Of a DNA stretch of 64,000 nucleotides, positions 9,093 to 59,186 are shown piece by piece (the first letter of the stretch is position 1; each line of letters begins with the position of its first letter). Below the pieces are notes generated by a model that did no database searches, was not told the origin of the DNA, and saw only the letters and a program-made list of their open reading frames with translations. The position numbers were made by a program, and so were the translations under genes. The DNA is from Chiloscyllium plagiosum (taxonomy: Eukaryota), in the NCBI RefSeq assembly GCF_004010195.1, contig NC_057749.1, positions 10,650,409-10,714,408 of the forward strand, given 5' to 3'.

Positions 9093-9273
9093 ATGAATCA
9101 CTTGTAAAAACAGTTATCACTGTGTCGTCAGTATGCTGATGATGACATTTCATTGTTCGCAAAGCGCTCTGAGACACCCTGATGTTACAAAAAGTGCTCA
9201 ATCAACATGAGCTGTCCTTTTATCTACACGGGCATGATTGTCATGAGAGGAATGAGTTGTTCGCCTGCTTTCA

Positions 9274-9457
9274 GAAGTCACATGACACCAGATTGTAGTC
9301 CAACAGGCTTTTTTGAAATCACAAGCTTTTGGAGCGCTGCCCCTTCACCAGGTGAAGTCACGAAAGCTTGTGATTTAAATAAACCTGTTGGATTACAACC
9401 TGGTATCGTGTGACTCCTGACTTTGCTCACTCCAGTCTAACACCGGTACCTCCACAT
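9274..9457. mobile_element. short palindromic PLE-type insertion (family P2), degenerate
   Basis: Inverted arms (tagtccaacagg... / ...cctgttggatta); TSD ctgctttca at 9265-9273 and 9458-9466. Confidence 0.75.
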
Positions 9458-11741
9458 CTGCTTTCAACACTGGTGGCAGCGCTGGTTTAGGAAAATACAT
9501 TAACGTTATCCCTCTCAATACTCTGAAAGTCAGTTCCCATCACCATAGGACTTTGGTAAAAGCCAAGGCATGACATCATTTAGCCTTTGGATGGCATCAT
9601 TGCCCACATGTTCTTGATACCTTCAGGCCCAGATTTCAGTGACCTGTCAATCTACCAGAACCACCTTACCACCGCTGCCATCTTCACCCTCACAGTGGGT
9701 TAAATGCTCGGTCTCCTTTCCATTGTTCTGCCAGTGAGGAGTTTTTGGAAAGCAGTTTGCCTGGTCACCCCAACTTAGCGGCCCACTGGTGCACCAAATT
9801 TGTGATGGGACCACTCAAGGAATTGCTGGACTCACCGCATAAACACAGTGGTGTCAAGAGCAGGTCAGAGATTAGGAATACTGCGGCAAATAACTCAGCT
9901 CCAGACACTCCAATGCCCGTCCACTTCCTGTAAGGCTCAACTCAGGAATGTGATGAAATACTCCTCACCCACCTGGTTGAGAGCAGCTCCAACAACACTC
10001 AAGACAACATCCAAGACAAAGCAGCCCACTTCATTAGTACCACATCCACAAAAACATCCACTCCCACCACCATCAATGTTCAGTAGCAGGAATATGTACT
10101 ACTGACAGGATGCAATGCAGAAATTCATCAAAGATCCTTAGACAGCATCTTTGAAACCCACGACCACTAGAAGAGCTAGGCAACAGATACATGGGGCTCT
10201 TCCACCAAGTCAAGGTGGTTTCTCACGGAAGAAAGATTTAAACTGAGGCACAGAGAGATCTTTCTTTGAGCAAGGAACCTTTACCTTTATCTTAAACCAA
10301 GACTAAGGTCCTTGGTTTAATATATTATCTGATAAAGTGACATCCACTCAATGCCCACTGAGCTAGGCTTTATTCATAAGACCCAGAGTGTAAGAGCTAG
10401 GAAGTTACCTTTAGTGTGCATGGTTCAGCCATCTGTGTACAGTTCTGGGCACCTCAATTTAGGAAGCTTTTCTTTATTATTTCCTCAACAGGACATGGAT
10501 ATCGCTGGCTGAGTCAGCAATTGTCAGCCATCCCACACTGTCCTTGAAGAGGCAGTGGTGAGCTGCCTTCTTGAACCACTGTGGTGTGTTGTAAGTACAT
10601 CTATCGGGTCATGAGGGAGGGAATTTTGAATTGCGACCCGGTGACACTGAAGGATTGGCTATATATTTCCAAGTCAGGATGGTGAGTGCCTTGGAAGGAG
10701 CTTGCAGGGGACGGTGTTTCCATGCATCTGCTGCCCTTGGAAGTGGTTATGGGTTCTCAGTGATTTTCTGCAGTGCATCTTGAAGCTGGTACACACTGCT
10801 GCTACTGAGCATCAATGGTGGAGGGAGATGATGCGTGTAGATGTGGTCTGCTTTGTCCTGGATGGTGTCAAGTTTCTTGTGCACCCATCCAAGAAAGTGG
10901 GGCAAGTGTGAAAGCATTAGAGAGAGTGTGCTGAAGAAATTCATAGGCAGAAGGAATTTGAGTGATATGGTTAGATCAGAGACATTGGAACTGTTTTCCT
11001 CAGAGAAGAGGCATTTCAGAGGAGATTTGATAAAAATGTTCAAACTCAGGGCAGAACCAGACAGCATAGATGGTTAAACAAAAATGTTTTCATTGGTTCA
11101 AAGATAGGGCACAGATTTAAAATAATTGGCGGAAGAAGCAATGGAGACTGAAAGTGAAACATTTCCGTGCAGAAAGTGGTTAGGATGTGGAATCCGCTGC
11201 CTGAGAGCGTGGTGGAGGCAGGTTCAATCGAGGTACTCGAGAGGGACTTGGATTATCCTGTGAAAAGAAAGAGTGGGCAGGATTACGGGGAGAAGGTAGA
11301 GGAATGACACCAGATGAACTGCTCATTCGAAGAGCCTGCACACAGGCACGATGGACCAAATGACCACCATCTGTGCTGTAATTACTCTGTGATTCTGTTG
11401 GAGTGGAATTCAGCAAACCCAGAAATTCGAAACATCTATTCGCAAATAGTGCACACCACGGTGCCAGTGTTGGGATCCCAACAGAGACCAACCAGCTAAA
11501 AAGACACAAATGTATCAAATAACACTAACAGGAAATCATTACCTTCACGGAATTAACCTCCCATCCTCTGTCAACAACAACAGTCAACCAAGTCAATATC
11601 CTCACAGGACAAAAGCTGGTAAAATGTAGGCAGAGATTGTAACTGCCCCTCAGTTGGGCACAAGAGGTTCTCCCTTTTGGTAATAGGAAATGGCACAGGA
11701 GCTCATGAGAGACACCATCCCACCCTGTCTCAAGAGGGCAA

Positions 11742-12080
11742 TTGACGAAACTCTAGTCAGAGAGACAATAGCCAACCTCCTGGACAACCAGAGCAGGCAA
11801 CTCAATGGGGAACCTATCAACAAGGACTGCATATTCAAACTACTAGACCTGTGCTTGACGACACACTTCACTTCATATTCAACAGCCAAATATTTGAACA
11901 GATCAATGGAACACCGATGGGCTCATAGCCTAGAACAAACAGCCCTCCCACAAATCTAACCCAAACTCTGGATCAGATACACGGATGACACTTTTGTTAT
12001 CATTAAGAGAACAGAAATTGAGAAGACACACACAGGGTATCAACCCGTGCTTACAGGGATCAGATTTACCCAGAGGAGGA
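11742..12080 (+). mobile_element. Penelope-like RT fragment, decayed
   Basis: LLDLCLTTHF...NGTPMG...WIRYTDDTFVI similar to 6802-7029. Confidence 0.75.
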
Positions 12081-12081
12081 A

Positions 12082-57081: not shown

Positions 57082-57256
57082 GATTTGGAGATGCCAGTGT
57101 TGGACTGGGATATACAAAGTTAAAAATCACACAACACCAGGTTATAGTCCAACAGGTTTATTTGGCAGCACTAGCTATCGAAGCGCTGCTCCTGATGAAC
57201 ACTTGACGAAGGAGCAGCACTTGGAAAGCTAGTACTTCCAAATAAACCTGTTGGAC
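57082..57256. mobile_element. short palindromic PLE-type insertion (family P2)
   Basis: TSD tagtacctgaaat at 57069-57081 and 57257-57269. Confidence 0.85.
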
Positions 57257-57391
57257 TAGTACCTGAAATTGTTAATTAACATCATGTAATAATTTCCAAT
57301 TACAAAAGACAGCTGTAACAAACACAGAGAATGCTGAAGAAAATTAGCAGTTTCTGTGAGGAGAGAAACAAAGTTAACTTTGTCTGAAGGT

Positions 57392-58173
57392 CTGAATTAG
57401 ACTACAGACAGGAGGTGGAAGACCTGGAAAAATAGTGCATTGAAAACAACCGAGCTCTCAATGCCGGTTAAATCAAGGAACTCATCATTGACTTTTGGCA
57501 GGATGTTACTCATGCCCCCCTACACATTGGAACGAGTGGAGAGTGTTAAGCTCCTGGGAGTGGTCATCCACAACAAACCTTCTTGGACTCTTCATGTGGC
57601 TGCACTGGTTACAAAGGCCCAACAACGTCGCTTCTTCCACAGGCAGCTGAGGAAATTTGGTATGATGGCGAATACTTTTGCCAACATTTATCGGTGCGCC
57701 ATCGAGACCATTCTGTCTGGATGTATCACTACCTAGTATGGCAACTGTACCATTCAAGATTGGAGATGGTTACAGAGAGTGGTGAACTCAGCCCGGACAA
57801 TCACAAAGGTCAACCTCCCCTCCATAGAATCCATCTACCAGGCTCGCTGTCAAGGAAAGGCTGCCAGCATTCTCAAAGATCCATCCCACCCCGGCAATGT
57901 TTTTTTACAACCTCTATCATCGGGAAGAAAGTACAAAAGCTTGAACACCTGCACCAGCCGGTTTCAAAACAGTTTCTACCCTACTATTGTTAGAATACTG
58001 AATGGACTCACAAACTCTTAACATTCACCTGTCCTTGTGTTTTTGTTTTTGCCGCTGTTTATCTACTATTTACTTTTCTATGCTATTTAACTCTGTGATC
58101 TGCCTGTATTGCTCGCAAGACAAAGCTTTTCACTGTGCCTTGGTACACGTGACAATAAATTCAACTCAATTCA
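57392..58173 (+). mobile_element. Rex1/Babar-type LINE 3' fragment
   Basis: ERVESVKLLGV...KAQQRRFFHRQLRKFG...YRCAIETILSGCITT; LKDPSHPG...SRFQNSFYP; tail gtgacaataaattcaactcaattca. Confidence 0.8.
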
Positions 58174-59186
58174 GACTCTGAAGAAGAGTTCTCCCCAACT
58201 TGAAATGTTACCTCACAGAGGCTGCTGGATCTGCTGAGTGTCTCCAGCATTCTCTGTGTTGTTTTTACAGATTTCCAACAACCGCAGTATTTTGCTTTTA
58301 CCTGGGAGGAGCTCATCAGTTCTTCCATTCTCTCTAAGTTGTATATCAGAATGTTTCAGTACCAGTAATGTGTACTTACTCTAAACTCAAGTCTGCAATT
58401 TTACAAGCCTTAGGCTCTCATCTATCTTAGTAGCAATACAATCAGCTATTAAGTACTACATAATAAACCTGTTTCTTAAGACTGTGTCAATTTAGTATTT
58501 AGGAGGAGAAGGATTAGTGGCAATGAATCTACACAAGGAATTACAAATGGTGCACACAAGCACACTATAGCTTGCTAGCAGCACTGATACCAATAAATAT
58601 AACATCTTAAACATTCCACAAACAGAAACAGAAATTGCTGGCAAAACCCAGCAGGTCTGGCAGCATCTGTAAAGAGAAATCAGAGTTAACGTTTTGGTTC
58701 CAATGACCCTTAGTCATAGAGTTATACAGCATGGAAACAGACTCCTCGGTCCAACTCGTACACACCGACCAGATACCCTAAATTAATCTACTCCCATTTG
58801 TCAGCATTTGACCCATATCCCTCGAACCCTTTCCTATTCGTATACCCATCCAGAAGCCTTTCAAATGTTGTAATTACACCAGCCTCCCCCACCTTCCTCT
58901 GGTAGCTTATTCCATACACACACCATCCTCTGGACCTGAAACATTAATTCTAATTTCACTCCACAGATGCTGAGTTCTTCCAGCAATTTCTGTTCTTGTT
59001 TCCAATTTCCAGCATCTGCAGTTCTTTTCAGTTTTAATCTTGGGAATTTCTCCTGTTTCCATGTTGCCATTTCAACACTCACAGAGCTGGTCAGCAACTG
59101 CAGGGATTGTCTTAGTAAAGTCATGGTGCTTAATACAGTACCTTCAATAAAGTACAACATTTAGAGGTGCTTGTGAAGGAAATTTA

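Follow-up and report, generated by a model that had tools for sequence, protein, structure and literature searches.

The 64,000-nucleotide stretch of Chiloscyllium plagiosum DNA analysed here (the window) carries small non-coding palindromes built around a hammerhead motif. What are these insertions, and is the palindrome itself the unit that moves? The original prediction had interpreted them as non-autonomous or extremely truncated, retrozyme-like PLE units mobilised as self-complementary ribozyme cassettes.

Palindromic insertions in the window and in the genome

When the sequence was re-examined, all eight sites of the original prediction proved to be real non-coding insertions of 100–250 bp, and the division into at least two main families, P1 and P2, was upheld. 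Six of the eight are head-to-head pairs of arms with both 3′ ends pointing outward, and two are single arms. Seven are flanked by direct repeats (TSDs) of 9–16 nt, first given as 9–15 bp. The decayed copies at ~53596, 57320/58166 and 58635 were recovered as well, and a BLAST search of the window added copies at 30775, 34251 and 56723. The insertions are as follows, pairs having one arm on each strand:

9274–9457, pair: P1-like, head to head, ~78% identical to younger P1 copies; right arm tailed; 9-nt TSD CTGCTTTCA at 9265–9273 and 9458–9466
18736–18927, pair: P1, head to head; ~36-nt tail on the antisense left arm, none on the right; junction truncates both hammerhead cores; 13-nt TSD with 1 mismatch
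26831–27081, pair: P2, head to head; left arm tailed; 15-nt TSD CTCATTAGACGACCT; plus-arm hammerhead (C3 at 26993) a full descriptor match; minus-arm hammerhead (C3 at 26959) matching except that 15.1–16.1 is ACAT instead of the palindrome ACGT
30775–30861, plus strand: P1 arm fragment starting at +25 from C3, without hammerhead; newly found
34251–34545, minus strand: long P1 copy whose homology to other long copies reaches 183 nt or more upstream of the hammerhead
42073–42300, pair: P2-like, older subfamily (~80%); right arm tailed; 12-nt TSD
42477–42652, pair: P2, both arms truncated within the hammerhead; left arm tailed; 15-nt TSD
51293–51392, minus strand: single P2b-type arm starting ~10 nt upstream of the core of the hammerhead, without tail; 16-nt TSD with 1 mismatch
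53596–53684, minus strand: decayed P1 arm
54485–54614, minus strand: single tailed P1 arm with intact minimal hammerhead motif (C3 at 54606); flanking repeat of only 6 nt, ambiguous
56723–56766, plus strand: P2 arm fragment
57082–57254, pair: P1, left arm tailed, right arm ending early; 15-nt TSD with 1 mismatch
57320–58300, pair: third family (P3), head to head; antisense arm 57320–57395, sense arm 58166–58300 with C3 at 58178
58635–58697, minus strand: decayed arm of a further P2-related family

The 770-bp stretch between the P3 heads (57396–58165) was read by eye as a putative LINE-type RT C-terminus; a Pfam search of 57550–57993 within it gave no match.

Across the window and the genome loci, most of which were picked by similarity to a query, direct repeats of at least 9 nt (median 14) flank 69 of the 78 inverted pairs, compared with 2 of 78 in a control in which the right boundary was displaced by 200 nt. 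Across the pairs, TSDs range between 9 and 17 nt in length. The unselected sample is small, comprising 80 kb of random genome, the window and flanks. Its 28 insertion loci in 144 kb, 16 of them non-pairs, correspond to a density of ~1 insertion per 5 kb (originally put at ~1 per 6 kb) and by extrapolation to a copy number in the order of 10^5–10^6.

Hammerhead motif and PLE parents

The insertions carry a PLE-type minimal hammerhead motif, whose catalytic activity is putative. A CUGANGA ... GAAA core with helix II between is present, reading CUGAUGA-A-GGAGC/GCUCC-GAAA-GCUA in P1 and CUGAAGA-A-GGGC/GCCC-GAAA-CGUC in P2. A minimal-hammerhead descriptor matched 7 times in the window, at 6 sites (100 shuffles gave a mean of 0.12), and 77 times in the 316.7 kb of window plus loci (0–2 in 20 shuffles); the extra A or U present in 77 of 77 matches follows from the construction of the descriptor. 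Covariation between families is seen in helix II, where the second pair is G-C in P1 and P2, U-A in PLE-A and PLE-B, and A-U in P3; the closing pair is G-C in P1 and P2 and G-U or G-C in PLE-A and PLE-B copies. Positions 15.1–16.1 are AGCT in 17 of 17 matches of the main P1 class (GGAGC/GCTCC) and ACGT in 43 of 48 in the main P2 class of helix II (GGGC/GCCC), the exceptions being CpG-type changes. The palindrome at 15.2–16.2 that belongs to the dimer design is thus present, with no closed helix III. Lunse and colleagues are said to have described small hammerhead variants that cleave as dimers in 2017. Canonical type I hammerheads with loop-loop contacts are absent from the descriptor matches, which have neither a closed helix III nor a loop 1. 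Rfam hammerhead models gave no match in the whole window, either at the gathering score or at E ≤ 10; this is expected of motifs that lack helix III but still counts against a hammerhead assignment. The palindromes matched only miRNA-hairpin models of Rfam, all of them below threshold. Helix II, with 4–5 bp in P1 and P2, is shorter than the usual 6–8 bp of metazoan PLE minimal hammerheads (Cervera & de la Pena 2014, PMC4209133).

The same core is shared by PLE fragments at 1816, 6705, 7630 and 63919, previously noted at 1813, 6705, 7627 and 63916, which belong to the following copies:

1196–1943, plus strand: PLE-B copy whose 207-aa frame ends within the core of the hammerhead, with C3 at 1816; flanking repeat of 8 nt
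6669–7740, both strands: complex PLE-A insertion with a 3′ end in inverted orientation, then a fragment of RT (RVT_1 at 6796–7113), then a long head-to-head pair with its centre at 7345; only the right end tailed; 14-nt TSD AATACCTTTTAGTT
63117–64000, plus strand: PLE-A copy running off the window, with the ORF stop in hammerhead loop II (63933–63935)

The PLE origin of the insertions, as originally proposed, is supported for P1 by a genome locus (L074) in which a 318-aa open frame is followed, within one contiguous copy, by a 3′ UTR of ~540 nt, the hammerhead and a tailed P1 arm. The frame is 72% identical, over 99% of its length, to a shark protein of 643 aa that scores above threshold for Pfam RVT_1 (36.5 bits, cut-off 29.6), so that a reverse transcriptase ORF lies in the same element directly upstream of the arm. 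The order ORF, 3′ UTR, TATAAA at −38, hammerhead and arm is found in L074 and in L073/L068. Among the long copies, TATAAA occurs in L043, L068/L073 and L074, TATAAAG in L055 and GATAAA at window position 34251, and none of these in L008. A first look at the whole genome returned 42,638 candidates for the ORF of the P1 parent. L073 and the insertion at 6669–7740 are long versions of the pair architecture with one tail each. Assignment of the PLE ORFs to a GIY-YIG type rests on the motifs ..VVYLIRC.. and ..WYIGET.., visible in the frames, and on a Pfam GIY-YIG match below the cut-off for 63117–63632 (E = 0.027). This frame resembles the P1-parent frame in BLASTP (E = 1e-4), Pfam gave no match, GIY-YIG included, on the P1-parent frames, and RVT_1 at 6796–7113 was the sole Pfam match among 14 window ORFs. 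The P1 family represents the 3′ terminus of an abundant PLE whose copies carry an ORF of RT and putative GIY-YIG type, and the description as an extremely truncated PLE holds for this family. An autonomous P2 parent was not found in the ~330 kb examined.

Perfect inverted repeats between flanking direct repeats look superficially like a MITE, and PLE structures are known to trouble assemblies (PMC8557442). An origin at the DNA level, be it through a foldback/MITE-type transposon, through subsequent inverted duplication or through misassembly, is nevertheless the least credible of the explanations considered. No fixed short TSD of the MITE kind was found: TSD length is variable, the outer ends are unequal, and the arms are 3′ ends of ORF-bearing retroelement copies. 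Contigs of independent runs also contain inverted joints, with opposite strands meeting at the hammerhead, and raw RNA reads show inverted joints too.

Arms, tails and junctions of the pairs

The 3′ ends of the arms concentrate at two points in selected and unselected loci alike. Arms ending at the farther point have a PLE-specific tail of 35–40 nt, and exactly one arm is tailed in 73 of 78 pairs from the window and genome loci; the same rule holds for 18 of 21 pairs in unselected sequence. By eye, the boundaries of the 78 pairs revealed no consistent relation between tail presence and which arm is more complete. Within a pair, both arms trace back to one source variant: for P2, loop II is of the same type in the two arms of 31 of 34 pairs, with 13.7 expected, and for P1 the variant agrees in 12 of 17 (6.9 expected). 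A TG/TGTG indel differs between the arms in 8 of 27 P1 pairs, which fits two templates or slippage. The central junction is formed anew in each copy, as 35 P1 pairs display 29 different combinations of arm starts and 30 P2 pairs 13 different spacings, with at least four centre sequences within the commonest spacing.

These data bear directly on the idea that the palindrome itself is mobile, that is, a self-complementary hammerhead cassette transcribed and retro-copied whole. Many genome copies do match the whole 200-bp P1 palindrome at 88–93%, some junction forms recur at unrelated loci (L003 with L022; L016 with L025), and variants are common to both arms of a pair. However, most copies have unlike junctions, pairs have unequal arms of which just one is tailed, and single arms with TSDs as well as long copies exist, the non-pairs forming the majority of unselected loci. 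Furthermore, a whole transcript would form a ~100-bp hairpin instead of a hammerhead, and only miRNA-hairpin models matched, below threshold. Mobilisation as a cassette, as put forward in the original prediction, is therefore unsupported, and we regard it as very improbable.

We propose instead that each palindrome is, with high probability, the product of one PLE integration in which two very short 3′-terminal copies were laid down head to head within a staggered target cut. The copied module would begin a few nucleotides 5′ of the minimal hammerhead and continue over ~95 nt to one of two fixed cDNA starts, the distal of which would add the tail. The same module is also present in the 281-bp tandem-forming P2b unit. 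Reverse transcription may have been primed by both target strands, as in vitro for the anole PLE, or the first cDNA may have been copied back; either route would use a single start point on each strand, with one RNA or RNAs from a common source as template.

In unselected sequence, the 5′ ends of 17 of 27 P1 and 32 of 61 P2 arms lie within −30 to +12 of C3, and ~55% of arms end at most ~20 nt from the 5′ edge of the hammerhead. There is no pile-up at the cleavage site (+28) in unselected sequence, where nearby values of 16–38 are scattered, and the hammerhead cut site was rejected as the template 5′ end for this reason. Two further ideas were also rejected, namely a microhomology template switch at loop II for the stretch GGGCTCATTC 5′ of the P2 hammerhead, because TTAT-type elements still have the CTCAT form there, and, for the P1 boundary, a splice acceptor, because the AG varies among long copies. 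Poly(A)-primed single-cell RNA reads, from a library unsuitable for end mapping, had no start or end peaks and no ends at the cut site. In the proposed integration, the hammerhead is merely carried along with the module as a passenger, and its cleavage is unnecessary to explain the copies.

A retrozyme route would use hammerhead-cut, circularised unit RNAs as templates, with stubs and arrays arising by rolling-circle reverse transcription. It draws on the P2b relatives, a non-coding 281-bp unit with one type I hammerhead each, arranged head to tail in two of four loci examined, with copies 91–100% identical. In this they resemble animal non-LTR retrozymes (Cervera & de la Pena 2020, PMC7229834; bioRxiv 10.64898/2026.07.22.740005); the bioRxiv preprint links PLE terminal repeats to animal retrozymes. 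Against this route stand the lack of a pile-up at +28, the middle segment that differs between adjacent units of one array, and the minimal PLE type of the hammerheads, with helix III unclosed, in place of the canonical form with loop-loop contacts. The palindromes are inverted rather than tandem; head-to-tail units of 170–400 bp, as in retrozymes, are seen in P2b alone. We consider the route improbable, and the terms retrozyme-like and non-autonomous apply only to the P2b relatives.

Under the favoured reading of one PLE integration per palindrome, the common end just 5′ of the hammerhead could be the 5′ end of a short transcript initiated ~30 nt downstream of the TATAAA box in the 3′ UTR of the parent. 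The resulting stubs would be promoterless and dead on arrival. Sense RNA reads are also present 5′ of the TATA box and count against the idea of a transcription start there, as does the occurrence of TATAAA in only a subset of long copies. We can only tentatively suggest that the hammerhead 5′ edge is the 5′ end of a TATA-fired transcript of ~100–135 nt which is a complete minimal PLE template in vivo. One such RNA, or RNAs of a single source, would be read twice per integration, from the proximal start on one strand and the distal start on the other, and the outcome would be the palindrome with one tail.

Relation to known elements and significance

Much of this architecture is familiar. Inverted 5′-truncated copies, one-sided tails and pseudo-LTR hammerheads have already been described (Arkhipova 2013; Cervera 2014; Craig 2021; Frangieh 2024). 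PMC3846280 reports inverted pLTRs with a one-sided tail and a TATA/Inr in the pLTR, and PMC8557442 an inverted 5′-truncated copy with a tail at one end, citing Evgen'ev & Arkhipova 2005 and Arkhipova 2006 for PLE insertion structures, pseudo-LTRs and a one-sided tail of 30–40 bp. The shark insertions share with canonical endonuclease-bearing PLEs the variable TSD, heavy 5′ truncation, adjacent inverted head-to-head copies and a 30–40 bp tail at one end, as well as the terminal-repeat hammerhead, a nearby TATA box and, in long copies, an ORF of RT and putative GIY-YIG type. They differ in that both arms are usually only ~100–135 nt long and lack the body, in that more than half of the arms end at the hammerhead 5′ edge, and in their extrapolated copy number.

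The inverted structure and the TSD are reminiscent of twin priming of human L1, in which, as reportedly proposed by Ostertag and Kazazian in 2001, both 3′ ends of a staggered break prime. L1, however, copies two different parts of the RNA and yields an inversion, whereas here the same module is copied twice and yields a palindrome.

The closest experimental counterpart is the anole Poseidon PLE (Frangieh et al. 2024, PMC11167929). In vitro, both target strands are cleaved and extended, cDNA synthesis begins at two internal starts ~35–40 nt apart and some 90–130 nt 3′ of the hammerhead, and the hammerhead is dispensable; we also count the template, an uncleaved RNA, as alike. In the shark, the ORFs terminate ahead of the hammerhead or within it, whereas the Poseidon ORF starts at it. 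Shark pairs use one start per side, a coupling that is unreported in vitro. The one-tail rule is not predicted by the anole data, where start-site use is equal between strands (PMC11167929).

A literature search for shark-specific PLE descriptions, with Repbase and Dfam outside its scope, found nothing relevant. Three features may be new: the preferred arm end close to the hammerhead 5′ edge, the same source variant in both arms of a pair, and the insertion density.

In conclusion, PLEs are known to leave head-to-head inverted stubs, and this shark genome contains very many of them: at ~1 insertion per 5 kb they make up a noticeable portion of its sequence. For annotation, they should be masked as PLE terminal fragments and not as MITEs, microRNA hairpins or a new element class. 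For the mechanism, thousands of natural integration products, with one tail per event, same-source arms and a preferred 5′ end at the hammerhead, constrain models in ways that the in vitro system has yet to explain, and they indicate that a module of ~100–135 nt suffices for integration in vivo. If the tentative reading of a minimal template read twice were true, it would amount to a strand-coupling rule of PLE integration unseen in vitro, would define in natural terms the smallest RNA that a PLE can mobilise and would explain several hundred thousand insertions in this shark genome.

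Families, sites and abundance

The original prediction that the small non-coding insertions fall into at least two clear sequence families, P1 and P2, was borne out by reading the eight listed sites and by self-BLAST of the window. The P1 core reads CTGATGA-A-GGAGC(3-nt loop)GCTCC-GAAA-GCTA and the P2 core CTGAAGA-A-GGGC(4-nt loop)GCCC-GAAA-CGTC, each followed by ~ 95 nt. This 3'-terminal module of Penelope-like elements (PLEs) is here called an arm. Six of the eight sites are inverted pairs of arms and two are single arms. As predicted, the 3' ends face outward in every pair. 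Seven sites have flanking direct repeats of 9–16 nt; at 54485 the repeat is 6 nt only.

Features of the window (window positions)
9274, 18736, 57082: P1, head-to-head inverted pairs
26831, 42073, 42477: P2, head-to-head inverted pairs
54485: P1, single arm
51293: P2b type (P2 relative), single arm
30775, 34251, 53596, 56723, 58635: further P1 or P2 copies (58635, a P2-related family)
57320/58166: P3, third family
16995-17066: tRNA-like match of 33.1 bits (above threshold), possible SINE head
33848-33951: U6-like match, sub-threshold (26.8 vs 44)
23109-24465, minus strand: two open frames (402 and 376 aa) that overlap, no Pfam match
23613-23813 (adjoining these frames) and 36101-36211: N runs

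In the 3.56 Gb assembly, the P1 palindrome gave at least 3,027 first-look candidates and the P2 arm at least 950 (40 scored in each case). We examined 60 loci from these searches, eight arbitrary 10-kb stretches and six further loci. The 80 kb of arbitrary sequence held 15 P1/P2 insertion loci and the window 13, a density of about one per 5 kb; 12 of these 28 loci are inverted pairs.

Hammerhead motif and parent elements

The original prediction had proposed a hammerhead scan and a covariation check of stems I/II. A minimal-hammerhead descriptor matched seven times in the window, at six sites, whereas 100 shuffles averaged 0.12 matches. A stricter one (CTGANGA, one free base, helix II of at least 4 bp, GAAA) matched 77 times in the 316.7 kb of window and genome loci, against 0–2 in 20 shuffles. 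Helix II covaries between P1, P2, P3 and PLE-B, a longer PLE copy of the window.

Helix II by family
P1: GGAGC/GCUCC
P2: GGGC/GCCC
PLE-B: GUUACC/GGUGAU
P3: GAGUU/AACUU

The Rfam hammerhead models matched these predicted hammerheads neither at the gathering score nor at E ≤ 10, which is understandable because the motifs have no closed helix III but is still counted as a failed test. In the PLE-A copies, the other longer PLEs, a TAG within hammerhead loop II ends the long frame (63933-63935, 7644-7646), and in PLE-B the CUGA core supplies the TGA stop (1817-1819), so that the last codons overlap the ribozyme motif. In the anole element, in contrast, the ORF starts at the hammerhead.

The predicted origin from truncated PLEs holds for P1. 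In one copy outside the window (L074), a 318-aa open frame, a ~ 540 nt 3' UTR, the hammerhead and an arm with its longer 3' end are contiguous, and TATAAA lies 38 nt before CACCTGATGA, upstream of the hammerhead. The frame shares 72% identity over 99% of its length with a shark protein of 643 aa whose RVT_1 match passes the Pfam cut-off. It also has a putative GIY-YIG-type motif, supported only by BLASTP against PLE-A (E = 1e-4) and a sub-threshold Pfam match for PLE-A. The P1-parent ORF gave 42,638 first-look candidates in the genome and the 400 nt upstream of the P1 hammerhead 5,788. Judged by sequence, these counts and the structure of L074 place P1 at the 3' end of PLEs that form a very abundant family, with a predicted RT/endonuclease-type ORF in its long copies. 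No coding parent of P2 was found in the window and genome loci. Its close relative P2b forms head-to-tail arrays of a 281-bp unit (L071, sense coordinates 1022-1674; L072). P2b is probably recent: its copies are 91–100% identical (up to 99–100% in the genome), which points to activity in the recent past. Within one array, two units next to each other have different middle segments.

To a long P1 copy map 2,711 raw poly(A)-primed single-cell reads (X19, same species label). Non-templated T runs abut L043:1903 (395 reads) and L043:1906 (216 reads), 611 in total, at about position 62–65 of the arm and 13–16 nt after an ATTAAA within it. Thus, sense P1 transcripts are polyadenylated in the arm before either cDNA start point is reached, and the P1 template RNA may not be the same molecule as the P1 messenger RNA. 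A library of this type is unsuited to locating transcript starts, and none emerged from it. ATTAAA/AATAAA also occurs in P1 arms of the window, e.g. 18875-18885.

Junctions, tails and arm ends

The palindrome arises anew at every insertion rather than being copied. A mobile self-complementary cassette, as originally proposed, does not agree with the junctions, which differ between copies: the start points of the two arms combine in 29 different ways among 35 P1 pairs, and 30 distinct P2 pairs show 13 anchor-to-anchor distances from 44 to 94. Even the commonest of these, 69 (10 pairs), comprises at least four different centre sequences. Flanking repeats of at least 9 nt accompany 69/78 pairs (median 14, maximum 17) versus 2/78 in a displaced control. 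A few forms of the junction are shared between unrelated loci; they are read as preferred stop points.

Arm 3' ends form two classes ~ 35–40 nt apart, and exactly one arm has the longer end in 73/78 pairs (P1 34/35, with a biased query; P2 39/43, with a query free of that bias; 18/21 among unselected pairs). One such end is also found in the long PLE-A insertion 6669-7740 and in the long pair of L073. It is the published PLE “tail”, which passages of PMC8557442 and PMC3846280 describe as 30–40 bp, often at one end only.

Both arms share a source. Of the 34 classifiable P2 pairs, 31 have the same loop II variant (TCAT, TTAT, others) in both arms, versus 13.7 expected by chance; for the P1 variant the figures are 12 of 17 versus 6.9. 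Whole-arm identity is only slightly higher within than between pairs (P1 0.926 vs 0.904; P2 0.916 vs 0.865), and a TG/TGTG indel is unlike between the arms of 8/27 P1 pairs.

In unselected sequence, 17/27 P1 and 32/61 P2 arms have 5' ends within −30 to +12 of C3, a hammerhead core reference position; 5 and 20 end further inside, and 5 and 9 continue upstream (a few entries of the arm 5'-end table occur twice). The predicted cleavage site (+28) shows no accumulation of such ends. As a rough measure, the summed contig depth of one DNA run is ~ 7- to 20-fold lower immediately 5' of the hammerhead than in the arm.

A 770-bp stretch (57396-58165) sits exactly between the heads of the inverted P3 pair, its 3' end abutting one head. 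By eye it looks like the C-terminal portion of a LINE-type reverse transcriptase, with no Pfam match. It may stem from a template switch, when copying moved from the end of the PLE RNA to a second RNA, or it may have inserted later. The palindromes score below threshold against several microRNA precursor models (best 146 bits vs gathering score 268), with a risk of false miRNA calls and a hint that their read-through transcripts would form long hairpins.

Sub-threshold microRNA precursor matches
26869-27083
7312-7377
18816-18884
42542-42627

Mechanism and classification

The purified protein of an anole PLE cuts and extends each of the two target strands, starts cDNA at two internal sites spaced like the tail, and does not require hammerhead cleavage (PMC11167929). 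For rotifer PLEs, parts of PMC3846280 describe TATA/Inr motifs in the pseudo-LTR and palindromic head-to-head junctions interpreted as self-priming. We propose that one palindrome would represent one integration event, in which the same short module, on one RNA or on RNAs from a common source, would be copied from both sides; alternatively, the first cDNA might be copied back. In either case each side would use a single start point, and the ends would then be joined without a fixed register. The preferred 5' end might, more tentatively, be a transcription start ~ 30 nt downstream of a TATAAA box. If so, every long copy would keep emitting short, promoter-less, integration-competent RNAs.

The elements fit the tested features of PLE minimal hammerhead ribozymes and PLE insertion structures. 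The original description as retrozyme-like fails for the P1/P2 palindromes, for which strict retrozyme identity was rejected (inverted not tandem, hammerhead minimal), and stands as a resemblance for the P2b arrays. MITE identity was likewise rejected for the palindromes. A literature search, with Repbase and Dfam outside its scope, found no published description of the shark P1/P2 families.

In conclusion, the palindromes are a known kind of element with some mechanistically useful regularities. Independent use of two start sites does not predict a strong one-tail rule or a shared source of both arms, and these two are the most useful new constraints on the mechanism.
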